A stretch of 64,000 nt of DNA. It comes from Escherichia coli. Its GTDB lineage: Bacteria; Pseudomonadota; Gammaproteobacteria; Enterobacterales; Enterobacteriaceae. The position numbers and the translations under genes were made by a program. This document shows, piece by piece, positions 12,919 through 53,245 of this stretch (positions are counted from its first letter, which is position 1; every line of letters starts with the position of its first letter). The stretch lies in the NCBI RefSeq assembly GCF_044324785.1, contig NZ_CP172127.1; one strand, 5' to 3'. Under the pieces are notes generated by a model. It saw only the letters and a program-made list of their open reading frames with translations, did not search any database and was not told the origin of the DNA.

Positions 12919-14451
12919 TCAGGTGCCGATTATGCCGCCGTCGGCTTTTACGATAACGACAGTTGAGGAGCGCGGACGACCAGCCTTATCGCCGTCAGGC
13001 CAGCTTGATACTGCCGTCGGATGCTGCGGATCGCTAAGCCCTTCGCTTGGCTCGCCAGGGTGCTGGATGTTAATAAACAGCGTCCGGTTATCCGGAGTGA
13101 ACGCGATGCCGGTGATTTCGCAGCCGCGCGGGCCGGTCAGGAAGCGGCGGAACTCATTGGTACCGGGGATCGTCGCCACCATCTGGTTGTTGCCCATGCC
13201 TTTGTAATCTTTAATATTTATGGTTGATGACGACACGTCGGTCTGGATCCATAGCACGCCGCGGTGATCAAAGCTCAGGCCATCGGCGCTGCCGAATTCC
13301 GCACCCTTCATGCTGCCTTTGGTTTCCAGTTTGTCTGTATCGGTGCGACCGCCCATCACAAGAATATCCCAGGCAAACTGCAGCGCGGTCGGGTCACCGT
13401 TATGCTCCAACCAGTGAATGATGTGGCCGTAAACGTTTTTGGCGCGCGGGTTGGCCGCATCCACTGGCGCTTTTCCTTCCTTACCGCGATCGCTGTTGTT
13501 GGTGAGCGTGCAGTAAACGCTGCCGGCGTGATATGGATCGACCGCAATCCACTCCGGGCGGTCCATTTTAGTGGCCCCCACGGCGTCTGCCGCCAGACGG
13601 GTTTTAATCAACAGGTCGCCCTGGTTTTCAAACCCTTTACTGGCGTCGAGCCCATTTTGTCCGAACACCAGCGGTAGCCACTCGCCTTTGCCGTCGTCGT
13701 TAAATTTCGCCACGTACAGAGTGCCTTTTTCCAGCAGGTGCATGTTGGCTTTGCGATCCTGCGGGTTGAATTTTCCTTCCGAGACAAATTTATATATGTA
13801 TTCGAATTTCTGGTCATCGCCCATATAGACCACAACGCGGTTATCCGGGGCAATTGTCACCGCTGCGCCTTCGTGTTTGATGCGACCAAGCGCGGTGTGC
13901 TTGCGCGGCACTGAATGCGGATCGTATGGATCGATTTCCACCACCCAGCCGAAGCGGTTCGGCTCGTTCGGCGTGGCGTCGACGCTGAACCTTTTATCCA
14001 CTTCGTTCCAGCGGTAAGAGTCGTCGCTCCCGCTGATACCGTAACGTTTTTCCAGCGGGTTCATCTCTGCTTTTTTTACGAAAATATCGGACCAGTTCTC
14101 TTCACACGTCAGATAGGTGCCCCACGGCGTAAATCCGTTGGCACAGTTCTGCATGGTGCCGAGAATGATTTCGCCTTTCGGATCGTCAACTGTTTGCATC
14201 AGTGGGTTATGCAGCGCCGGACCGGTGATTTTCATCGGCGTGTTAACGGTGATGCGGCGTGCGAACGATGACGGGCGCACCACTTCCCAGCCCAGGGGCA
14301 CTTTTTTTACTTCAATGACCGACACGCCCATCGCGTTCTGGCCTTTAAGAGCTTTATCGGCGCTCCAGTTGGCATCGCCATCTTTAAACAGTAGACCGTT
14401 ATCGATGTATTCATGGTTTATGGCAAGCAGGCCGTGATCGGAGCTGTTCCC
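12919..14451 (-). pseudogene. phoX: PhoX-family (DUF839-like) secreted phosphatase gene, 3' part, separated from its 5' part by the prophage
   Basis: Reading frame continues exactly from the fragment at 52793-53245 across the target-site duplication (...SLPQGGN | SSDHGLLAINHEY...); the first 16 codons of ORF 12919-14499 are phage-end derived. Confidence 0.65.
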
Positions 14452-14500
14452 TGATGCGCCGCGCGATAAATGCACTCTATCTTGTGCGATAAATGGCATC
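14452..14500. repeat. Prophage left terminus with two putative transposase-binding motifs
   Basis: GATAAATG at 14465-14472 and 14488-14495; mirrored at identical offsets at the right end. Confidence 0.6.
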
Positions 14501-23632: not shown

Positions 23633-26600
23633 CAGCGGTACTCCTTACGTTGTTTCTGAGCCAGCAGACGCTCCAGCATTTTTTCCAGCTCATGCAGACT
23701 CATATTCAGGGCACCAGTCAGTCCTGCAGGCGCTGTGGTTTCCCTGCCATTGAGGAAAAACTGAGGATTAAAGCTGACCTGGATACCACCAGACGTTCCA
23801 CCGCCGGTTGCAGCTGCACCACGGCCTGAATATCCGGCAGCCAGGATTTCAGGCGAGGGGATACGGGGAACATCCGGTGTCATCTCATTTGCCAGACGTT
23901 GCCCTGGTAAAATCGATGCCCGGGTGGAGAGCGGAATAACGGGCATGGAAGACAAACTATTGATTACGGCTCCGATCGCATTTTTAGCAGACGACATAAA
24001 CCCATTGATATCGGGCAACGGCATACTGAAGCGAACACCTGAAGTGTTATCCCGTATTTCTGGCCCCTGAATGCTCACGGGCATTCTGGGGAGCAGTTCA
24101 CTGGCCATTCGCTGCCCGGCCAGAGCTGCAAGCGGAGTGGTCCGCTGCAGGCCAATGGCGGCCCCCTGCGCGATATTGTCACCAAAGCCCATAAACACGC
24201 GGCTCGGCGAATGAATGCCCAGCTTTTCGCTGAACCAGCCACTGATGCTGTCACCCATTCCGGTTACACTGGATTTGAGCGACTCCCATTTGTTTTTGAT
24301 ACCGTTAATCAGACCGTCGACAAGATGGCCACCGAAGTCGGTGAACTTTGCCGGCAGATCAACACCAAGATATTTCAGCGCAGCTGCAAAGGCTTTATAG
24401 AGCAGACCTGCCGGCGACCAGTTAATCAGCAGCTTACCAGTTCCCGCGATACCGCCGTTAAAGGCTTCCTGAATGTCAGCCCAGCACTGTTTAAACCAGC
24501 TACTGATGCTGTCACCCATTCCGGTTACACTGGATTTGAGCGACCCCCATTTGTTTTTGATACCGTTAATCAGACCGTCGATAAGATGGCCACCGAAGTC
24601 GGTGAACTTTGCCGGCAGAGCAACGCCGAAATATTTCAGCGCAGCCGCAAAGGCTTTATAGAGCAGGCCTGCCGGCGACCAGTTAATCAGCAACTTACCA
24701 ATTCCCACAATGCCGCCGTTAAAGGCTTCCTGAATGTCAGCCCAGCGCTGTTTAAACCAGCTACTGATGCTGTCACCCATTCCGGTTACACTGGATTTGA
24801 GCGACCCCCATTTGCTTTTGATACCGTTAATCAGACCGTCGATAAGATGGCCACCGAAGTCGGTGAACTTTGCCGGCAGAGCAACGCCGAAATATTTCAG
24901 CGCAGCCGCAAAGGCTTTATAGAGCAGGCCTGCCGGCGACCAGTTAATCAGCAACTTACCAATTCCCACAATGCCGCCGTTAAAGGCTTCCTGAATGTCA
25001 GCCCAGCGCTGTTTAAACCAACCACTGACAGCCCCCCAGTTGCGGTAGATAAGGTAAGCTGCTGTCGCGACAGCGGTGATAACGAGACCGATGGGATTCA
25101 TCATCAGCGCTCGCCCAATCCAGAGAACGGCACGTGCAGCGCTCATAAAACCGCGAACGAGGCTGCCCGCCAGAACTTTGCTGAGTTTCAGTCCTCCGCT
25201 GGTCAGTCGGCTGAATCCAGTGACAAGCCAGCGTAATTTGCCACCTTCTCCGAGTGCGGTAGTCAGTCGATGCCAGTTGGTCCGGAGTAAAACAGTAGTT
25301 TTCCAGACGTTCACAAAGGGGGAAATAAGGAGATTCAGCCCCAGTTTGAGACCAATAGTCGCTATCTTAATCGCAAGGAGCGCACTGATGAGCTTAAAAG
25401 CCCCACTGACAAATTGCGGGTGAGTCGCTACCCAGTGTTTTGTCCCCTGAATGAGTGGGAGCAGTTCCTGAGTCAGAGAAATAAAAGATGGAGCTAATTG
25501 ATCGCCCAGCGTAATTGCCAGATCGCGACTGCTGACCATAAGTGTTTTAGTGGCTTCAAGGGGAGATTTCAGCCGCTGATCATAAGCACTGGCAAGCAAA
25601 TCGTTATCCGCAGCCCTGAGAGCACCGGCACGGATCTCTCGATATCTGTCCATGTTGGCCAGCATCGGGCGGATAAATGCCATGACCTGCATATCCGCGA
25701 ACATATCGCCCAGACCAAAGTTTTTCGCCAGAGCCTGAAGTGCCTCATCTCTTGCCGTATCATTCTTTATTTTCATGGCTGATTTGAAGCCGGCCAGCGC
25801 TTCGGGGCTTTTGGCATTGAGGTAACGTTCTATAACACTCAACATCCCTTCAATCGGAGAGATCCCCGCAGCTTTATAACTCGCAATAGATCCCTGCAAA
25901 TCAATACCCAGATCAGCAAACTGTTTCTGAGTATCGCGGGCAAAAATTTTGGTAAGAAAGTTTTTAAAATTATTGGCTGCTTCGTCGGTGGAACCTGCAC
26001 CGATTTTTGCTATCTGGAGACTGGCCCCGATTTCAGCAACAGCCTCTTTTCCACTGGCAAGACCCGCCATCATTGGGGCCAGGGACTGCATCCACTTGAC
26101 CTGATCCGGGATTTCAAATGACCCCTGGTCACCGGCATAAGCCATAATATTCTGAACGGCACCAAAATCTCTGGCCGCACCTTTCAGGGAGTTTTGCCAG
26201 ACTGCGGCCACTTTTGCCCAGTCCTGAGCAGACGTGCGTGTTGCCGTTGCCGCGCGGGCAATATCCGGCATCAGAAAACCGATATCTGACACATTATCAA
26301 TATTGTCGCTGATGAGTGAACCCACCGCCTCCTGCAGCTCATCCTGATACTGATTGTATTTAAGCGCCCAGCCTTTTATCTGTCCGGCAAGTGCATCCCG
26401 CGTTTTATTGTCATATTTTGCGGTGATCGACATATCAATCATTTTGTCCTGAAAAGACATGGACTGCTGAACGGCAGGGGAAACCGTATGATAAACAGTC
26501 TGTGCCATGCCATACGCTTCAATCCCCTGACCATACAGCGCCATGCGGTTAGCTTTCAGCGCATCACTGGTAGCGGATGCCGCTGACAGACGGCGCTGCT

Positions 26601-30372: not shown

Positions 30373-30815
30373 CAGTATTTCTCCAGTAAACCGTCACGAC
30401 CGCCGAAAGTAGCCGGGCGACTGCGTACACGAAACTCGCCAGGCTCAGGCACATCTTTCTGAGTGGACGGCAGCCCCAGCGTGAGCCTGTTATCACGTAA
30501 CTCCCTGAGTTGCCGCAGCGCTTCTTTGTGGTCATCCTTCACCGTATCCGGGAGGTCACCTTCCGGGCGGCGGGCGTAGAGCCGGTAACGGACCAGCGTG
30601 ATGGCAATGTCCCGCAGAACAGTCGGTATCTCTGCCAGTGGCAGGATATAGCGTCCGCGCAGATGGGCATCAATCAGCTCGTCGGCATAGCGGATACAGC
30701 TGTCCACCACACGGGTATTCACTGTTGCAGGTGAGTCGAAGTCCATCTCTTCACTGGTGAGCTCGATAAGCGTCCGCTCCGGCACCTGCGCAAGCAAATC
30801 CTCCAGGGTGCAGTA
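30372..30815 (-). CDS. Phage head completion protein (Mu gp36-like position)
   Basis: Probable start MYCTLEDLL at 30815. Confidence 0.5.
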   Translation of the reverse strand, partial: YCTLEDLLAQVPERTLIELTSEEMDFDSPATVNTRVVDSCIRYADELIDAHLRGRYILPLAEIPTVLRDIAITLVRYRLYARRPEGDLPDTVKDDHKEALRQLRELRDNRLTLGLPSTQKDVPEPGEFRVRSRPATFGGRDGLLEKY

Positions 30816-30819
30816 CATG

Positions 30820-31158
30820 TCACACCCCGCGCAGGATACGAATGACGTCGCCTTCACCCCCGGCTTCATCAAGTGCAATACCACAGGATTTACCGTCGCC
30901 GGACTGCGGCACGGCTCTGGCCTGAGCATCTGACTGAACAGCCACACCACGGCTGACAGCGGCCCCGGCCTCGACAGCAATAATGCCCAGAACGCTCACC
31001 GGCGTGCTGTCGCCGGTAACAGCATCCACTTCGGCAACCCCGAGCGCTGCGGCACCGGCTTTACAGGGGGTATTATTTGCCCCGACAAAACGCTGCTGTG
31101 CCAGTGCTGCCCCTGCCGTTACGGTTGTGATCAGAATGACCTGCTGAGTGGTTCCCAT
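30820..31158 (-). CDS. Small Gly/Ala/Val-rich capsid-associated protein
   Basis: 112 aa low-complexity protein directly after the major head gene. Confidence 0.45.
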   Translation of the reverse strand: MGTTQQVILITTVTAGAALAQQRFVGANNTPCKAGAAALGVAEVDAVTGDSTPVSVLGIIAVEAGAAVSRGVAVQSDAQARAVPQSGDGKSCGIALDEAGGEGDVIRILRGV

Positions 31159-42313: not shown

Positions 42314-43078
42314 ATGAAAATGAAGACATTACCCATCGTTCCATGGATTGGTGGCAAACGTCGCCTGGCAAAACACATCCTGCCGCTGTTTCCGGCGCAT
42401 GAATGTTATGTGGAGCCGTTTTGTGGGGCAGCAGCGCTCTATTTTCTTAAGACACCCGGCAAGATCGAAGTCATCAATGATATCAACGGTGAACTGGTGA
42501 ATCTGTACCGGGTGGTAAAGCATCACCTGGAAGAATTTGTCCGCCAGTTCAAATGGGCGCTGGTCAGCCGTCAGATCTACAAATGGCTGCAGATCACCCC
42601 GGAAGAAACACTGACGGATATCCAGCGTGCGGCACGGTTCTACTACCTTCAGAAGCAGGCGTTTGGCGGCAAGGTGGCAGAGCACAGCTTCGGTACCTCC
42701 ACCACATCCCCGCCACGCTTCAACCTGCTGCGTATTGAAGAAGAACTGTCAGCAGCACACCTGCGGCTTTCCAGAACAGTCATAGAACACATGGACTGGC
42801 AACAGTGCATTGAGCGTTATGATCGTCCGCACACACTGTTCTACTGCGACCCACCGTACCTGGGTACGGAAGGCTATGGTGTGGATTTTCCTGAAGGGAA
42901 CTACTCGCGGCTGGCAGAGCTGGCCCGGTGCATCAGAGGAAAAATGATAATTTCGGTGAACGATATCCCACAGATGCGCGAGGTGTTCACTGGACTGAAC
43001 ATACAGACAGTGAACATCAACTACAGTCTGGCGGGGAAATCTACGCCGCGCCGTGAACTGGTAATCTGCAACTTCTGA
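42314..43078 (+). CDS. DNA N6-adenine methyltransferase (Dam-like)
   Basis: N-terminal WIGGKRRLAKHILPLFP and catalytic DPPY motif (YCDPPYLG). Confidence 0.85.
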   Translation: MKMKTLPIVPWIGGKRRLAKHILPLFPAHECYVEPFCGAAALYFLKTPGKIEVINDINGELVNLYRVVKHHLEEFVRQFKWALVSRQIYKWLQITPEETLTDIQRAARFYYLQKQAFGGKVAEHSFGTSTTSPPRFNLLRIEEELSAAHLRLSRTVIEHMDWQQCIERYDRPHTLFYCDPPYLGTEGYGVDFPEGNYSRLAELARCIRGKMIISVNDIPQMREVFTGLNIQTVNINYSLAGKSTPRRELVICNF

Positions 43079-43085
43079 AACAAAA

Positions 43086-43108
43086 CCGGAAAGCACAATG
43101 CTTTCCGG
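43086..43108. terminator. Bidirectional hairpin between dam-like gene and repressor gene
   Basis: Perfect 9-bp stem CCGGAAAGC/GCTTTCCGG with 5-nt loop; T-rich run on the minus-strand side. Confidence 0.45.
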
Positions 43109-43194
43109 TAAACCAAACAACTTCCACTATGTCACTGGCGATGTTTTCTGAAAGCATCCAGATCAACCACCTGTCCTTTGTGTCCAGGTCAAAA

Positions 43195-43533
43195 TCAGCC
43201 TGCGAGTTTGCTTGGTTTGGGTTGAATGAAGACTTTGCCGACCTCAAGAATTGCCCTCCGTTGTTCGGGGCTCATTTCGTCGAATGCATCCATTAACTCT
43301 TTCTTTTCTTGTGACACATAAGGTGCAACAACAGGCTGACTCCGCACCCCAGTAACTACATACAAAATATCTACACCGATTTCTGATAGTGCAGATAACT
43401 GCACTGCAGTAGGAGAAGTGCGATCTTTTTCCCAATCAATGAAAGTTCTCTTTGCCACACCTATAGCATCAGCCAACCCTTGCTGTGTAAGAGATAGACG
43501 CTCTCTTTCTTCTTTAATACGTAACCCGATCAT
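43195..43533 (-). CDS. Phage repressor, HTH XRE/cI-type
   Basis: MIGLRIKEERERLSLTQQGLADAIGVAKRTFIDWEKDRTSP is a canonical XRE HTH; divergent from the early operon. Confidence 0.7.
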   Translation of the reverse strand: MIGLRIKEERERLSLTQQGLADAIGVAKRTFIDWEKDRTSPTAVQLSALSEIGVDILYVVTGVRSQPVVAPYVSQEKKELMDAFDEMSPEQRRAILEVGKVFIQPKPSKLAG

Positions 43534-43557
43534 GTGAGTTTTTCTGCACTCTTTAAG

Positions 43558-43586
43558 TTGACTGGTGAGGTAATCTGCACCATAAT
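43558..43586 (+). promoter_or_regulatory. Putative sigma70 early promoter with overlapping repressor operators
   Basis: -35 TTGACT (43558-43563), 17-bp spacer, -10 CATAAT (43581-43586); direct repeat TCTGCAC at 43543-43549 and 43574-43580. Confidence 0.4.
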
Positions 43587-43633
43587 CTATCACACATAAG
43601 GCAAACATCATTGCATCAACAAAGGAGACAACG

Positions 43634-43822
43634 ATGACTGCAGAACAAGTCAAAGCTCTCTTCCGCCAGCGCGGGATCACTTTCACCCGCTGGGCAGAAG
43701 AAAACGGCTACAACCGCAATGAGGTATACCGCGTTCTCAATGGGCAGACCAAAGCCCGTTACGGTAAATCCCATGAAATCGCCGTGAAGTTGGGGCTGAA
43801 ATCAACAGCTCAGGCAGCCTGA
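43634..43822 (+). CDS. Small DNA-binding protein (Ner-like position)
   Basis: 62 aa basic protein, first gene of the rightward early operon, divergent from repressor. Confidence 0.4.
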   Translation: MTAEQVKALFRQRGITFTRWAEENGYNRNEVYRVLNGQTKARYGKSHEIAVKLGLKSTAQAA

Positions 43823-43868
43823 AGATTTTGAGTCTTTGTAAAAGGTTATCACATATCGCAAAAGAGGT

Positions 43869-44183
43869 ATGCAGATGAGTAAGACGAATGTTTCAAGCTC
43901 CGGCAGTCGCATCCTCCGGGTACTCAAAGCGCTGCGCGGTCATGCCCTGAACGGTATTTCCAACGGTGAACTGGCGGCAGCACTGCACGAGTCACCGGCA
44001 AACATCAACCGGGCACTCAACACCCTCATTGAAGAAGGGTTGGCCCTGAAACTGGAAAACGGGCGTTTCGCGCCGGGCATCCAGTTACTGCAGATCGCTA
44101 TGGCCCACAGTAACGAGATGGCACGTGCACAGGATCGCATTAACGAAATCAACCAACGTGTCATTTCAGGTAGTCGTTTGTAA
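43869..44183 (+). CDS. Putative winged-helix DNA-binding regulator (104 aa)
   Basis: ILRVLKALRGHALNGISNGELAAALHESPANINRALNTLIEEGL resembles a wHTH. Confidence 0.4.
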   Translation: MQMSKTNVSSSGSRILRVLKALRGHALNGISNGELAAALHESPANINRALNTLIEEGLALKLENGRFAPGIQLLQIAMAHSNEMARAQDRINEINQRVISGSRL

Positions 44184-44193
44184 GGAGTAATAA

Positions 44194-45105
44194 ATGGGAC
44201 GCACCAAATCACCGATTAACACTGAACTGAACGCCGAGGTACCGCTGTCGGATGATCTCAATGTCAGTCTGAACGCCATGACACAGCATCGTATGGAGAT
44301 CATGCAGCAGTTTGGCGATGGTCAGCCCTATGAGCGTGATCGCATAGTTCATGAGGCTCGGTTTTATATGGCACAGAGCGCTGAGGCCATGCTGGAAGCA
44401 GGTAAACGACTTATTATTCTCAAAGAAAATGAACCTCACGGGGACTTTGTTGGAATTGTAGAAGAACAACTTGGTCTGCATGTGCGCGCAGCACAACGAA
44501 TGATGAAAGCATCTTTGAAATACCTTTCACCAAAACTAGAGCCAAAAGCGACAACGTTGTCGCTTTTAGGTAAGGCAAAATTATTTGAACTTGTTGCTGA
44601 AGATGACGACGACCTTGCTGAACTGGCCGACGGTGGCACAGTTGCCGGACTGACGCTTGACGATGTTGATCGCATGTCAGTACGTGAATTGCGTCAGGCC
44701 CTGCGCGAAGCGCGCGAAACCAACGCAGCACAACAGCGCGTACTCGCCGACAAAAATGAAAAAATAGACTCACTCTCCACCAGACTGGAGAAGAAATCCC
44801 GTATTCAGCCACCTGAGCCTGATGAAGAGGTGAAGAAACTGCGGGCAGAAGTGACCGCGTTAGCGGTTGAGGCGGAATCTGCCATCGCCGTTCGACTGTC
44901 CAGCGCTTTTGAGACGCTGTGCGCATATTGTGCTGAAAACATGATTGATACCCCCAGAGACTTCATGGCAGGCCTGGTCTGTCAACTGGAAAGCACAGCG
45001 CGTAGCCTGCGCTCCACATTTGACCTGCCGGACGAGCCAACAGGCAATGCAGCGCCTTCATGGCTGACTGAGCCGACGCCACAGATTAACGGGCTGGAGG
45101 CATAA
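44194..45105 (+). CDS. Hypothetical early protein (303 aa), possibly DUF3102-like
   Basis: Acidic, coiled-coil-rich; located just upstream of transposase A. Confidence 0.4.
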   Translation: MGRTKSPINTELNAEVPLSDDLNVSLNAMTQHRMEIMQQFGDGQPYERDRIVHEARFYMAQSAEAMLEAGKRLIILKENEPHGDFVGIVEEQLGLHVRAAQRMMKASLKYLSPKLEPKATTLSLLGKAKLFELVAEDDDDLAELADGGTVAGLTLDDVDRMSVRELRQALREARETNAAQQRVLADKNEKIDSLSTRLEKKSRIQPPEPDEEVKKLRAEVTALAVEAESAIAVRLSSAFETLCAYCAENMIDTPRDFMAGLVCQLESTARSLRSTFDLPDEPTGNAAPSWLTEPTPQINGLEA

Positions 45106-45108
45106 CCA

Positions 45109-46878
45109 ATGAATGCTGCCCTGACTGAACGACTGGTTTATGTCGCCCGCGCGGCACGTGACGCGGGGCATGGTAAACGCGGCGCAGTATACGACGCTGC
45201 CTGTGCTGAACTTGGCATGTCCCGCGCCACTCTGCTGCGCAGGCTGAAGGAGGTATCTGTGACTGATAAACGCAAAAAACGCGCCGATGCCGGGCGCAGC
45301 GCCCTGACCCGCGACGAAGCCGCGCTGATATCTGCCACACTGCGTGAGGCCACCCGCAAGAACGGTAAGCGTCTCTATTCCATCGCGGATGCAGTGGAAA
45401 CCCTGCGGGCTAACGGCTTTATATCCGCAGGCAGAACAGATGAAACCACCGGTGAGTTTTTCCCGTTGTCCGAAGATGCCATCAGCCGAGCCCTGCGTAA
45501 CTATGGCCTGCACCCGGAACAACTGGATGCCCCTGCGCCGCATACCGAAGTGGCCAGTCTGCATCCCAATCATGTCTGGCAGATTGACGCCTCACTCTGC
45601 ACGCTTTACTACCTGAGCAATGGACATAAAGGGCTGCAGGTGATGGACAGCGCGAAGTTCTACAAGAACAAGCCCGCTAACCTTGCCCGTATCGCCAGTG
45701 ACCGCGTGTGGAGTTACGAGATTACCGACCATGCCAGCGGCTGGATTTACGTTGAGTATGTGACGGGCGCGGAATCAGGTGAGAACCTGTGTTCTGTGCT
45801 TATCAACGCCATGCAGGAGCGTGGCGGCGCAGACGTGCTGCACGGTGTGCCGAAAATACTCTATCTCGACCCCGGCTCGGCAAACACCGCGGGTATGACG
45901 AAAAACATGTGCCGCTCACTGGGCATCGACCTGATAGCGCACAAGCCGCATAACGCCCGCGCCACCGGACAGGTGGAAAAGGCGCGGGACATTATCGAAC
46001 GCAAGCTGGAGCCGGGTCTGAAGTTCCGGCCGGTTCACAGTCTGGAAGAACTCAACGCGCTGGCCGCGAAATGGCGCAGCCACTTTAACGCCACGGCTGT
46101 TCACAGCCGCCACGGTAAAACCCGCACGGATATCTGGCTGAAGATTACTGCTGAGCAGCTGAAAAAAGCGCCTTCCGTTGAGGTATGTCGTGAACTGGCT
46201 GTGGCGGCACCAGAACTCCGCAAAGTCACGCCAAAACTTCGTGTCTCGTTCCGGGGCACTGAATTTGACGTATCAACGGTACCGGGCGTACTGGTTGGTG
46301 AAAAACTGATGATTACCCGTAACCCGTGGCGCAGCGATGTGGCACAGGTGGTTCTGACCGGTGAGGACGGCCACGAGACGTTCTTCCTGGTCGAAGAGGT
46401 CAGAAAGAACGAGTTTGGCTTTGCTGAAGGCGCGGCGGTATTTGGCGAAAGTTACAAAGCCCTGCCGGAAACCCCGGCGCAGATGGCGGCAAAAGAAACC
46501 GAAGCGCTGGTCACCGGTACAGACAACGCCGCAGATGCAGCTGCCGCACGCAAGGCGAAGGCGCTGCCGTTCGGCGGGCGGCTTGACCCGTATAAACATA
46601 TCGACGACACCACACTTCCGGCCTATATGCCGAAGCGTGGTCAGGCCTCTGACGTACGCGGGCCGCGCACTGAACAACGTCCCATGACTTATGTGGAGGC
46701 CGCGAAAGCCCTGCGCGATAAGTTCAGCGCCAACGGCTTTACCTGGACGCTGGAACATTACCGCCAGTTAACGGCACAGTATCCGGACGGCGTACCGGAA
46801 GCCGCACTGGATGAAGTCATGGCCACGCTGACCACGCCGGCCCGCAGCAGCGTTATCAGTATTGTTAACGGCAACTGA
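45109..46878 (+). CDS. Mu-type DDE transposase (A protein)
   Basis: 589 aa with integrase-core region (HVWQIDASL...) followed by the B-like ATPase gene. Confidence 0.8.
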   Translation: MNAALTERLVYVARAARDAGHGKRGAVYDAACAELGMSRATLLRRLKEVSVTDKRKKRADAGRSALTRDEAALISATLREATRKNGKRLYSIADAVETLRANGFISAGRTDETTGEFFPLSEDAISRALRNYGLHPEQLDAPAPHTEVASLHPNHVWQIDASLCTLYYLSNGHKGLQVMDSAKFYKNKPANLARIASDRVWSYEITDHASGWIYVEYVTGAESGENLCSVLINAMQERGGADVLHGVPKILYLDPGSANTAGMTKNMCRSLGIDLIAHKPHNARATGQVEKARDIIERKLEPGLKFRPVHSLEELNALAAKWRSHFNATAVHSRHGKTRTDIWLKITAEQLKKAPSVEVCRELAVAAPELRKVTPKLRVSFRGTEFDVSTVPGVLVGEKLMITRNPWRSDVAQVVLTGEDGHETFFLVEEVRKNEFGFAEGAAVFGESYKALPETPAQMAAKETEALVTGTDNAADAAAARKAKALPFGGRLDPYKHIDDTTLPAYMPKRGQASDVRGPRTEQRPMTYVEAAKALRDKFSANGFTWTLEHYRQLTAQYPDGVPEAALDEVMATLTTPARSSVISIVNGN

Positions 46879-46888
46879 GGAGGGAAAC

Positions 46889-48055
46889 ATGCTGGTACTG
46901 AAGCAGCAACTGAAAGAAGCCCGTATTCCACAGGCGGTGGTGGCGAGAGCTGTCGATGTTTCTGAGGCCACGCTGGCCCAGATTGTGAATCATAACGCGT
47001 GGCCCCGCACCAGCCCCGGAGAAGTGCGCCGGCGTCTTGCGTCCTGGCTGGAAAGTCAGGGGATTGATACAACGAAGAGTTTTGATGCTGTACAGGGCGC
47101 GGCCACGCCCCGTACAGCGGGTACCACAGATAAAACGAGCCTCAGTGAGGAAGAGAATATGTTACTCAAAAAACAGGTGTTATTTCCAGCAACCAAAAAA
47201 GCGTTTGGTCTTTTCCGTGACCCGTTCGCCGACGAAGCCATGCAGGGTTCTGATGATGTGTTCACCACCCCGGATATTCGCTACGTGCGTGAGGCGTTGT
47301 ACCAGACAGCCCGTCATGGTGGGTTTATGGCCGTCATCGGTGAGTCCGGTGCGGGTAAATCCACGCTGCGCCGCGACCTGACTGAACGTATCAACCGCGA
47401 GAATGCGCCGGTAATTGTTATCGAGCCATACATCATCGCTATGGAAGACAACGATGTGAAAGGGAAAACCCTGAAGGCAGCAGCGATTGCCGAAGCCATT
47501 ATCAGTACCATCGCACCACTGGAAAGCATCAGACGCAGTCAGGACGCCCGCTTTCGCCAGTTGCATCGCGTCCTGAAAGACAGCAGCCAGGCGGGGTTCA
47601 GCCACGTTCTGGTGATTGAGGAGGCCCACAGTCTGCCCATTCCGACACTGAAACACCTCAAACGCTTTTTTGAGCTGGAGTCCGGTTTCAAAAAACTGCT
47701 GTCCATCGTGCTGATTGGCCAGCCGGAACTGGCGACAAAACTGTCTGAACGCAATATGGAAGTCCGTGAAGTCGTTCAGCGCTGTGAGGTGGTCGAACTT
47801 CTGCCTCTGGACAATAACCTTGAAGAGTTTCTGACGTTCAAACTGCAACGGGCCGGTAAACAACTGACGGACATTATGGACGCCAGCGCAGTGGATGCCA
47901 TACGTGCCCGCCTGAGCAATCCGGGAAGTCATCGTAAAAATATGGTCAGCCTGCTGTATCCGCTGGCCGTCAGTAACCTGGTAATAGCCGCCATGAATCT
48001 GGCCGCTGAAATCGGGGTTCCACAGGTCAACGCTGACGTTGTCAAAGGGGTTTAA
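46889..48055 (+). CDS. Transposition ATPase (MuB-like AAA+ target DNA activator)
   Basis: Walker A VIGESGAGKST, Walker B-like HVLVIEEAH; SD GGAGGG before ATG. Confidence 0.8.
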   Translation: MLVLKQQLKEARIPQAVVARAVDVSEATLAQIVNHNAWPRTSPGEVRRRLASWLESQGIDTTKSFDAVQGAATPRTAGTTDKTSLSEEENMLLKKQVLFPATKKAFGLFRDPFADEAMQGSDDVFTTPDIRYVREALYQTARHGGFMAVIGESGAGKSTLRRDLTERINRENAPVIVIEPYIIAMEDNDVKGKTLKAAAIAEAIISTIAPLESIRRSQDARFRQLHRVLKDSSQAGFSHVLVIEEAHSLPIPTLKHLKRFFELESGFKKLLSIVLIGQPELATKLSERNMEVREVVQRCEVVELLPLDNNLEEFLTFKLQRAGKQLTDIMDASAVDAIRARLSNPGSHRKNMVSLLYPLAVSNLVIAAMNLAAEIGVPQVNADVVKGV

Positions 48056-52744: not shown

Positions 52745-52792
52745 TCGTTATTTATCTCACGGATCCCCCTTCATTTATCTCATGTCTGATCA
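52745..52792. repeat. Prophage right terminus with two putative transposase-binding motifs (inverted relative to left end)
   Basis: Reverse complement reads TGATCAGACATGAGATAAATGAAGGGGGATCCGTGAGATAAATAACG; motifs at + 52772-52779 and 52749-52756. Confidence 0.6.
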
Positions 52793-53245
52793 GTTCCCGC
52801 CCTGCGGCAGGCTAAACCACGCCATGCCGTCGTGGTGCATCCCGGCCTGCGCCGCCTGTTCTTCCGTGGTGTTGCTACCGTCGGTTTTAAAAACCGGCAG
52901 ATTTCCGGCAATCCCGGTGGCGTCGCCCCATTTGTAGAAGGGCTTCGCGATGTATCCTTCCGGCACGATAACGGTATCTTCCGTGGAAACCGGCAGGCTG
53001 GTGAAACCGAGCGTCGTCGCTTTGCCGAGGTTACCGCTTGCTTTGGAGACCACTTTCGCCAGCGCGTTTTCCTGTTTCAGCAGAAATGGGAACGCTGCCG
53101 CGGCACCGGCGACCGTGCCTGCCTGTAACAGACGGCGGCGTGACAAATAGACTTCCGCCACCTGCGAAAACGCGCGGTTATCGCTCGGGTTACTGATTTC
53201 TTCACTATGCTCACGTTTGAATAAAGTTTTTAACGGTCTGCCCAT
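52793..53245 (-). pseudogene. phoX: PhoX-family secreted phosphatase gene, 5' part (Tat signal), separated from its 3' part by the prophage
   Basis: Twin-arginine motif SRRRLLQAGTVAGAAAAFPF; frame terminated by TGA supplied by the prophage terminal TGATCA. Confidence 0.65.

Follow-up and report, generated by a model that had tools for sequence, protein, structure and literature searches.

Predicted repressor operators in the immunity switch of a BcepMu-like prophage of Escherichia coli

A 100-bp interval between two divergently transcribed genes of a transposable Escherichia coli prophage is, in our judgement, quite likely the lysis/lysogeny switch of the element, in which a repressor of the HTH_3 family is predicted to read sites of the form GTGCAG-N4-CTGCAC. 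Two of these sites (O1 and O2) are in the interval and a candidate third (O3) is in the repressor gene, and the parts that we propose for the three are set out below. Comparison with related prophages supports the prediction that the sites are operators of the divergent repressor. All coordinates refer to the window, which is the whole stretch of 64 kb that was analyzed. In the literature searched we found no published operator description for BcepMu-like or E. coli Bcepmuvirus prophages, and no binding, footprint or transcript data for this phage.

Genomic context of the prophage

The window is E. coli chromosome with a prophage of the transposable BcepMu type. The prophage is a complete and intact BcepMu-like element of ~38.3 kb, because both of its ends could be located from GTTCCC flanks and paired GATAAAT-type repeats:

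14446-14494: left-end region; the prophage begins TGAT... at 14452 and is flanked by GTTCCC
52750-52798: right-end region; the prophage ends ...ATCA at 52792 and is flanked by GTTCCC

The GTTCCC at both ends is an apparent 6-bp target duplication. Each end also has two (G/A)(C/G)GATAAAT repeats, 23 bp apart, which are probably transposase-binding sites; a search for 30-mer inverted repeats did not find the left end, which was located by the GATAAAT repeat instead. The family is matched in about 600 of 5,426 complete E. coli genomes, including ST131 and ABU 83972, and its insertion sites vary between genomes as a result of transposition; for example, the flanking host DNA in the window is not that of the copy in ABU 83972, where rstB is disrupted. 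Many complete E. coli genomes, among them ABU 83972 and ST131, contain the immunity region at 100% identity, and the region has 84% DNA identity to Escherichia phage PhiKM (Bcepmuvirus), with matching gene order.

Two arms diverge from the switch, with the late and lysis genes transcribed leftwards (minus strand) and the early genes rightwards. The early genes, and the two features beyond the 3' end of the repressor gene, are as follows:

42314-43078: phage-encoded Dam-like adenine methylase gene (D12-class), convergent with and directly downstream of the repressor gene
43085-43109, minus strand: terminator-like hairpin, an 11-pair stem followed by a T-run, between the repressor and Dam-like methylase genes
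43634-43822, plus strand: gp16 gene, the first early gene, for a DNA-binding protein of 62 aa, in the position of Mu ner
43869-44183, rightward: IclR-type HTH gene
44194-45105, rightward: DUF3102 gene
45109-46878, rightward: rve transposase gene
46862-48055, rightward: gene for the AAA+ protein (B)

The tail tape-measure gene contains internal repeats (24233-25028; offset 261 bp, 93-97% identical), which surfaced as staggered self-matches in a BLAST comparison with the ABU 83972 prophage.

The switch interval and its early promoter

The interval 43534-43633 is the exact gap between the repressor ATG (43533, minus strand) and the gp16 ATG (43634), which is where the original prediction had placed the switch. 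The features that concern us are these:

43195-43533, minus strand: repressor gene, 112 aa, with an N-terminal HTH_3 (Xre/Cro-C1) domain and a short C-terminal domain
43389-43404: O3, GTGCAGATAACTGCAC, a perfect 6-N4-6 palindrome with the CTGCAC half-site of O1 and O2
43534-43549, plus strand: O1, GTGAGTTTTTCTGCAC, immediately next to the repressor start codon, with 8 bp between it and the -35 hexamer
43558-43563, plus strand: TTGACT, the -35 hexamer of early promoter Pe, unchanged in all 13 variants of this immunity type that were compared
43565-43580, plus strand: O2, GTGAGGTAATCTGCAC, filling the 17-bp -35/-10 spacer of Pe
43581-43586, plus strand: CATAAT, the -10 hexamer of Pe, at which the exchangeable immunity cassette has its right-hand edge
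43584-43592, minus strand: weak candidate for the repressor promoter Pc, an extended -10 TGaTAGATT that overlaps the -10 of Pe
43607-43619, plus strand: leader motif CATCATTGCATCA, directly upstream of the gp16 ribosome-binding site
43622-43627, plus strand: Shine-Dalgarno AAGGAG of the gp16 gene, 6 nt before the ATG at 43634

The promoter elements are as first described, with TTGACT and CATAAT separated by a spacer of 17 bp (43564-43580), and so are the two copies of TCTGCAC, both on the plus strand (43543-43549 and 43574-43580) and 31 bp apart. Pe scores 10/12 to the consensus and is the sole promoter-like site in 43000-44000 by a consensus scan, and a -35-like hexamer occupies the matching position in all other immunity types. 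We predict that Pe is a near-consensus sigma-70 promoter driving the early operon.

The repressor, its start codon and its promoter

The repressor matches Pfam HTH_3 (PF01381) with 31.7 bits (cut-off 23) and also matches the N-terminal DNA-binding domain of P22 C2 (E = 1.8e-4); a match to DicA is sub-threshold. Pfam shows HTH families only, with no S24 peptidase or RecA-cleavable C-terminal domain, and induction is therefore not expected to proceed by LexA-like self-cleavage. Domains of the repressor have been shuffled (43195-43340; loci L052, L055, L059, L061 and L063). The C-terminal ~45 aa (...SPEQRRAILEVGKVFIQPKPSKLAG) are common to heteroimmune repressors with unrelated HTH domains, and the reverse is seen in one subgroup, in which the HTH domain and O1-O3 are kept and the C-terminal domain is entirely different. 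The C-terminal 45 aa may represent a common module for oligomerisation or inactivation.

We regard the start at ATG 43533 as secure. RefSeq repressor starts are inconsistent across genomes, with 152 aa (overlapping gp16) versus 112 aa (43195-43686, minus strand). The longer reading frame is interrupted in close variants by an in-frame stop seven codons before ATG 43533 and in another subgroup by an indel that shifts the frame, and these together mark the 152-aa form as an annotation artefact. There is no Shine-Dalgarno sequence for the repressor gene, because O1 sits in its place. We note that a GATC at 43528-43531 overlaps the start codon (CCGATCATG) and adjoins O1; it is invariant in the 13 variants and is not conserved in distant homologues.

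No Pc was found on the minus strand at the threshold of a consensus scan of 43000-46900, the hits being Pe and one minus-strand match in the DUF3102 gene that does not exceed chance. The weak candidate TGaTAGATT was read by hand and not called by the scan, and it has no recognisable -35; every type has it, but as part of the shared block, so that its conservation says little. Transcripts from it would begin within O2. A leaderless repressor transcript was rejected, there being no -10 at the right distance.

The repeated unit at the early promoter

The original prediction described TCTGCAC as a direct repeat and proposed that the copies are repressor operators overlapping the early promoter. 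The copies are real, and each is the right half of a 16-bp pseudo-dyad, GTGAG-N4-TCTGCAC, which is the actual repeated unit in place of the heptamer; a third site is in the repressor gene. The sites behave as repressor operators in all of the comparisons below, and the proposed overlap with the promoter applies to O2 alone, O1 being upstream of the -35. We consider O2 the main candidate for the site at which early transcription would be repressed.

O1 and O2 (GTGAGTTTTTCTGCAC and GTGAGGTAATCTGCAC) are identical at 13 of 16 positions, and a 16-nt repeat at that level of identity is reached in 23 of 2000 shuffles (1.15%). The heptamer repeat by itself is not significant, because 27% of dinucleotide shuffles of the 100-bp region (549 of 2000) contain an exact 7-mer direct repeat. 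TCTGCAC is also not enriched in the 64-kb window (12 found, 10 expected). The pattern GTG-N7-CTGCAC, for which the enrichment test is post hoc because the pattern was derived from the data, has five matches in the 64 kb versus 0.6 expected (four sites, with the palindrome counted on both strands), and none of 100 shuffles reaches five. Three of the four sites fall within the 192 bp of 43389-43580. The remaining one (GTGACATGTACTGCAC, 30808-30823, minus strand) is in the structural-gene arm and is probably there by chance.

Both O1 and O2 are poor palindromes, with 6-10 of 16 positions self-complementary, unlike the perfect ones of other immunity types. Each consists of one consensus half-site (CTGCAC) and one weak half-site (GTGAG) that is nonetheless conserved.

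Conservation and exchange among related prophages

We compared 13 distinct variants of the same immunity type, from E. coli and from viral contigs and including the subgroup with the other C-terminal domain, in an alignment of 460 nt; the compared sequences are related and the counts do not represent independent events. GTGAG, TCTGCAC, the -35 and the -10 are invariant in all 13, and the central 4 nt of O1 and O2 vary (with T, A or C at position 7 of O1). O1 and O2 are 31 or 30 bp apart. Two invariant runs are longer than any other in the alignment, namely 43388-43408, which is the longest and contains O3, and 43574-43589, which comprises the right half of O2 and the -10.

The boundary of the exchangeable cassette is seen in matches to relatives with another repressor HTH domain. 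About 385 E. coli records (95-99% identity band, with the listed rows at about 97.5%) match only from 43582 rightwards, which places the cassette boundary with PhiKM-type prophages at the junction between O2 and the -10. In the alignment with PhiKM itself, similarity breaks at this junction and a different HTH domain is present to the left.

A further 80 viral-contig loci were collected by anchoring on the conserved gp16 gene. Every other immunity type among them has its own palindrome of 16-18 bp, mostly perfect, at -70 to -53 from the gp16 ATG, in the promoter spacer. Among these type-specific spacer palindromes are GCTCATAATTATGAGC, ATCCCA-N4-TGGGAT, GTCTAA-N4-TTAGAC, GAGAAC-N4-GTTCTC and ATACAC-N4-GTGTAT. 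Each of these types also has a weaker copy of its own operator 29-34 bp upstream of the O2 position and adjoining the repressor start. Clustering of the HTH segment in 53 loci gives groups that correspond one to one with the O2 sequences, while gp16 stays at least 71% identical.

The same half-site is found in distant repressor homologues of other phages (59-69% identical in the HTH domain), which have GTGCAG-N4-CTGCAC or close variants in the promoter spacer; in two of these loci (L102 and L104) the spacer operator is the exact reverse complement of O3 in the window. The most distant homologues (L120-L125) are too diverged to inform. The comparison of operator repeats in related prophages that had been suggested as a check of the operators thus comes out in their favour, with half-sites that are invariant in the 13 variants, are replaced when the repressor HTH is replaced, and are matched by distant homologues. 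In a separate observation, a group of distant relatives (L102, L107, L108 and L116) have a further operator-like 16-mer (e.g. GTGCATTTATTCGCAC), which lies on the downstream side of the early promoter at about +75 relative to the repressor start and close to the ribosome-binding site of the first early gene; it has no equivalent in the window.

A candidate third operator within the repressor gene

O3 is the sole perfect 6-N4-6 palindrome in 43000-44000. It spans codons 44-49 of the repressor gene (V44-Q-L-S-A48 and the first base of L49), and the balance of the sequence evidence tips slightly towards its being a real third operator. Several tests point to selection on O3 at the DNA level. Synonymous positions in O3 are all fixed in the 13 variants; 56% of the other degenerate codons with an invariant amino acid vary. 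Among 15 distant homologues, the proportion retaining the identical codon is 0.47-0.80 in codons 44-48; elsewhere it is mostly 0.07-0.25, and a few codons reach 0.47 (4- to 6-fold degenerate codons). Within O3 the values are 0.73 for V44 (GTG), 0.47 for L46 (TTA), 0.47 for S47 (TCT) and 0.80 for A48 (GCA); outside it they are 0.09 and 0.10 for V54 and V59, 0.14 and 0.18 for L13 and L15, 0.08 for S40 and 0.25 for A21. With the codon usage of the prophage, the chance that the peptide would be encoded as a perfect GTGCAG-N4-CTGCAC is 0.006. A permutation test on the run of invariant codons gave p = 0.07, which is weaker than the site-specified test and the codon retention in distant homologues.

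An alternative explanation is that O3 is not an operator and that its conservation reflects an mRNA hairpin or the coding of the peptide AVQLSAL. The palindrome does fold as a stable mRNA hairpin (-12.3 kcal/mol, z = -3.1), and the peptide is invariant in all homologues. However, the changes in O3 among relatives are one-sided and not compensatory, and RNA structure is therefore not favoured; and in three homologues with a promoter operator of another kind (L114, L115 and L124) the peptide is unchanged although its coding sequence departs from the palindrome at 3-4 positions. O3 is moreover the same site as the L102 promoter operator, with half-sites as in O1 and O2. The distance from O3 to O2 fits this alternative in that it varies among relatives (173-185 bp), and there is therefore no conserved helical phasing to back looping. 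Other immunity types have no additional O3-like copies at three or fewer mismatches, the copies at the O1 position aside. On these grounds we think it rather unlikely that O3 is only a hairpin or a coding constraint.

Taking O3 as an operator, we suggest tentatively, and with less assurance than for the site itself, that the repressor gene carries its own best operator in the codons for helix 4 of the HTH (V-Q-L-S-A), kept by synonymous-site selection in repressors of ~60% identity, that the cassette of HTH domain, O3, O1, -35 and O2 is self-contained, and that O3 acts as a looping anchor or as a transcriptional roadblock setting the repressor level.

Which protein reads O1 and O2

A second alternative is that O1 and O2 are bound by gp16 or the transposase, in the manner of the Mu enhancer. 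There is a precedent in Mu, where the operator region, with divergent promoters PcM and Pe, doubles as a transposition enhancer (PMC3820752). Against it, all immunity types share gp16, the leader and the transposase region, and the sites change together with the repressor HTH domain, which argues that none of the constant components reads O1 and O2. The repeats at the prophage ends carry a different motif, GATAAAT. A DNA-binding domain common to repressor and transposase, as in Mu Rep and MuA, was considered and rejected, the two proteins showing no similarity here (best BLASTP E 7.3). We regard binding by gp16 or the transposase in place of the repressor as very unlikely; an added enhancer role for the sites, beside that of repressor operator, is conceivable.

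Slightly less probable still is an operator of the P2 kind, in which a single repressor oligomer would read the two TCTGCAC copies as direct-repeat half-sites. With the P2 C repressor, one dimer reads a pair of short direct repeats that flank the -10 and are spaced by about two helical turns. The co-orientation of the two TCTGCAC copies is consistent with this arrangement, as is the poor match of the left halves (GTGAG) to the right halves. Here, in contrast, 31 bp separate the copies, of which the first precedes the -35, the second is in the spacer and each is embedded in a 16-bp unit; this distance is too great for the two HTH domains of one dimer. In addition, GTGAG is conserved as strictly as TCTGCAC, O3 and the operators of homologues are true palindromes that are likewise 16 bp, and palindromes are present at this position in all other immunity types. 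The weakest alternative, that AT-rich intergenic DNA has produced the TCTGCAC pair by chance and the promoter alone is real, agrees with the shuffling of the heptamer and its lack of enrichment in the window, but is effectively refuted by the comparative data, given the 16-nt length of the true repeat, the invariant half-sites with variable centres in the 13 variants, the type-specific repeats at both positions in other immunity types and the recurrence of the half-site as a perfect palindrome in distant homologues.

The gp16 protein and the early leader

The label 'Ner-like' that the first early gene had been given is apt for its position and size and not for its family. It belongs instead to TIGR04111 (BcepMu_gp16; 97.4 bits, cut-off 34) and also matches phrog_925. 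Its score against the Ner-family HTH_35 (PF13693) is sub-threshold (17.9 bits, cut-off 25, E = 0.003), and a sequence comparison with PDB structures gives no match at E-values up to 10. We therefore rejected gp16 as a recognisable Ner.

The leader motif CATCATTGCATCA directly upstream of the gp16 ribosome-binding site is strongly conserved. A TTGCATCA-like sequence is kept in nearly all of the 80 gp16-anchored loci, even where gp16 identity is 71-75%, and a variant, ATAGTTGTATCA, is present in one subgroup. The motif could be a binding site (operator) for gp16 itself, for which it is the obvious candidate, or a leader RNA element.

A model for the switch

We propose that the 112-aa repressor, presumably as a dimer, would recognise the 16-bp sites of consensus GTGCAG-N4-CTGCAC. 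Bound to O2, which takes up the whole -35/-10 spacer, it would exclude RNA polymerase from Pe, whose transcription start is expected near 43593, and thereby shut off the predicted early operon of gp16, IclR-type HTH, DUF3102, transposase and AAA+ B genes. O1 is 31 bp from O2, which is about three helical turns and places the two sites on one face of the helix, and the repressor might bind them cooperatively as a pair; cooperativity has its one support in the spacing, which stays at 29-34 bp from one immunity type to another. With a weak and a strong half-site in each of O1 and O2, occupancy would depend on such cooperativity. O1 would also cover the translation-initiation region of the repressor gene. 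O3, 145-176 bp away, would probably serve as a high-affinity looping anchor, or as a roadblock limiting repressor synthesis.

Relationship to known phage switches

The prophage has the BcepMu-like gp17/gp16 module, with a gp16-family protein divergent from the repressor and followed by transposase and AAA+ genes. The switch also has the features of Cro/C1-type (HTH_3) systems, namely an HTH_3/Xre domain, 16-bp dyads with a variable centre and an O2 that overlaps the predicted lytic promoter; the S24 domain of the LexA-like cleavable repressors (lambda cI, P22 C2, 434 cI) is absent. As predicted from these features, the switch is a lambdoid-style (P22/434-like) HTH_3 repressor-operator system inside a Mu-style transposable phage.

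The resemblance to Mu is in the overall plan. Both are transposable phages with a repressor divergent from a small DNA-binding first early gene, then transposase A and B, and with operators at the early promoter. Mu Ner binds between Pe and Pc, and the Mu repressor sites are many short repeats spread over three operators. The present phage differs in that its repressor is of the HTH_3 kind and unrelated to the transposase, its gp16 is no recognisable Ner, its operators are 16-bp dyads, and its switch, with an arm diverging on either side, is central in the prophage instead of at the left end. Inspection by eye revealed no IHF site here, and no Pc was identified.

The likeness to P22 C2 and 434 cI is closer at the level of repressor and operator. 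P22 C2-class repressors bind dyad operators with a variable centre, and here too a similar DNA-binding domain goes with 16-bp operators that have conserved outer half-sites and a free centre, with tandem operators at the lytic promoter, and with a repressor-plus-operator cassette that is swapped between heteroimmune relatives. The differences are that the repressor here is of 112 aa without an S24 peptidase, there are two promoter sites and not three, the spacing is 31 bp, and O1 and O2 are asymmetric.

Three further systems bear on the arrangement. The literature on BcepMu assigns the repressor role to gp17 and describes gp16 as binding DNA (PMC2628397). The TP901-1 CI switch has operators OR and OL and a distal OD, two divergent promoters, and a repressor with an N-terminal HTH and a small helical C-terminal domain (PMC4941734). 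It resembles the present switch in having three operators including a distant one, which here is within the repressor's own gene. A distal third operator is thus already known (TP901-1; PMC4941734), and an intragenic operator of consensus sequence is the one mildly unusual feature of the system. For the transposable Pseudomonas phages B3 and Fc02, pC2 and pE are described as overlapping promoters in the gap from the repressor to a ner-like gene, and Fc02 has in addition a distal repressor promoter, pC1 (PMC9936078). Their early region is related to that of the present prophage, with 68% DNA identity in the DUF3102 gene. There, pC2 overlaps pE, whereas here the scan gave no Pc. We note separately that the DUF3102 gene contains an antisense promoter-like site (TCGTCA, 18 bp, AATAAT; 44542-44609, minus strand) followed by a 12-pair terminator-like hairpin, which is no more than expected by chance; the distal antisense repressor promoter of Fc02 is in the equivalent region.

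Implications

The mechanism of the switch is itself conventional, and the prophage family is common in E. coli. With the operator (GTGAG-N4-TCTGCAC; consensus GTGCAG-N4-CTGCAC), Pe and the cassette boundary known, immunity groups become readable from sequence, and the inconsistent repressor starts in RefSeq can be corrected. A mapped operator also gives precise mutations for making inducible or locked lysogens. Across the family a simple rule emerges, in which a type-specific dyad fills the -35/-10 spacer and a second copy is three helical turns upstream, and this offers a simple operator prediction for many uncharacterised HTH_3 repressors of BcepMu/B3-like phages. If the reading of O3 is true, then the immunity cassette of HTH domain, O3, O1, -35 and O2 would be a self-contained exchangeable unit.
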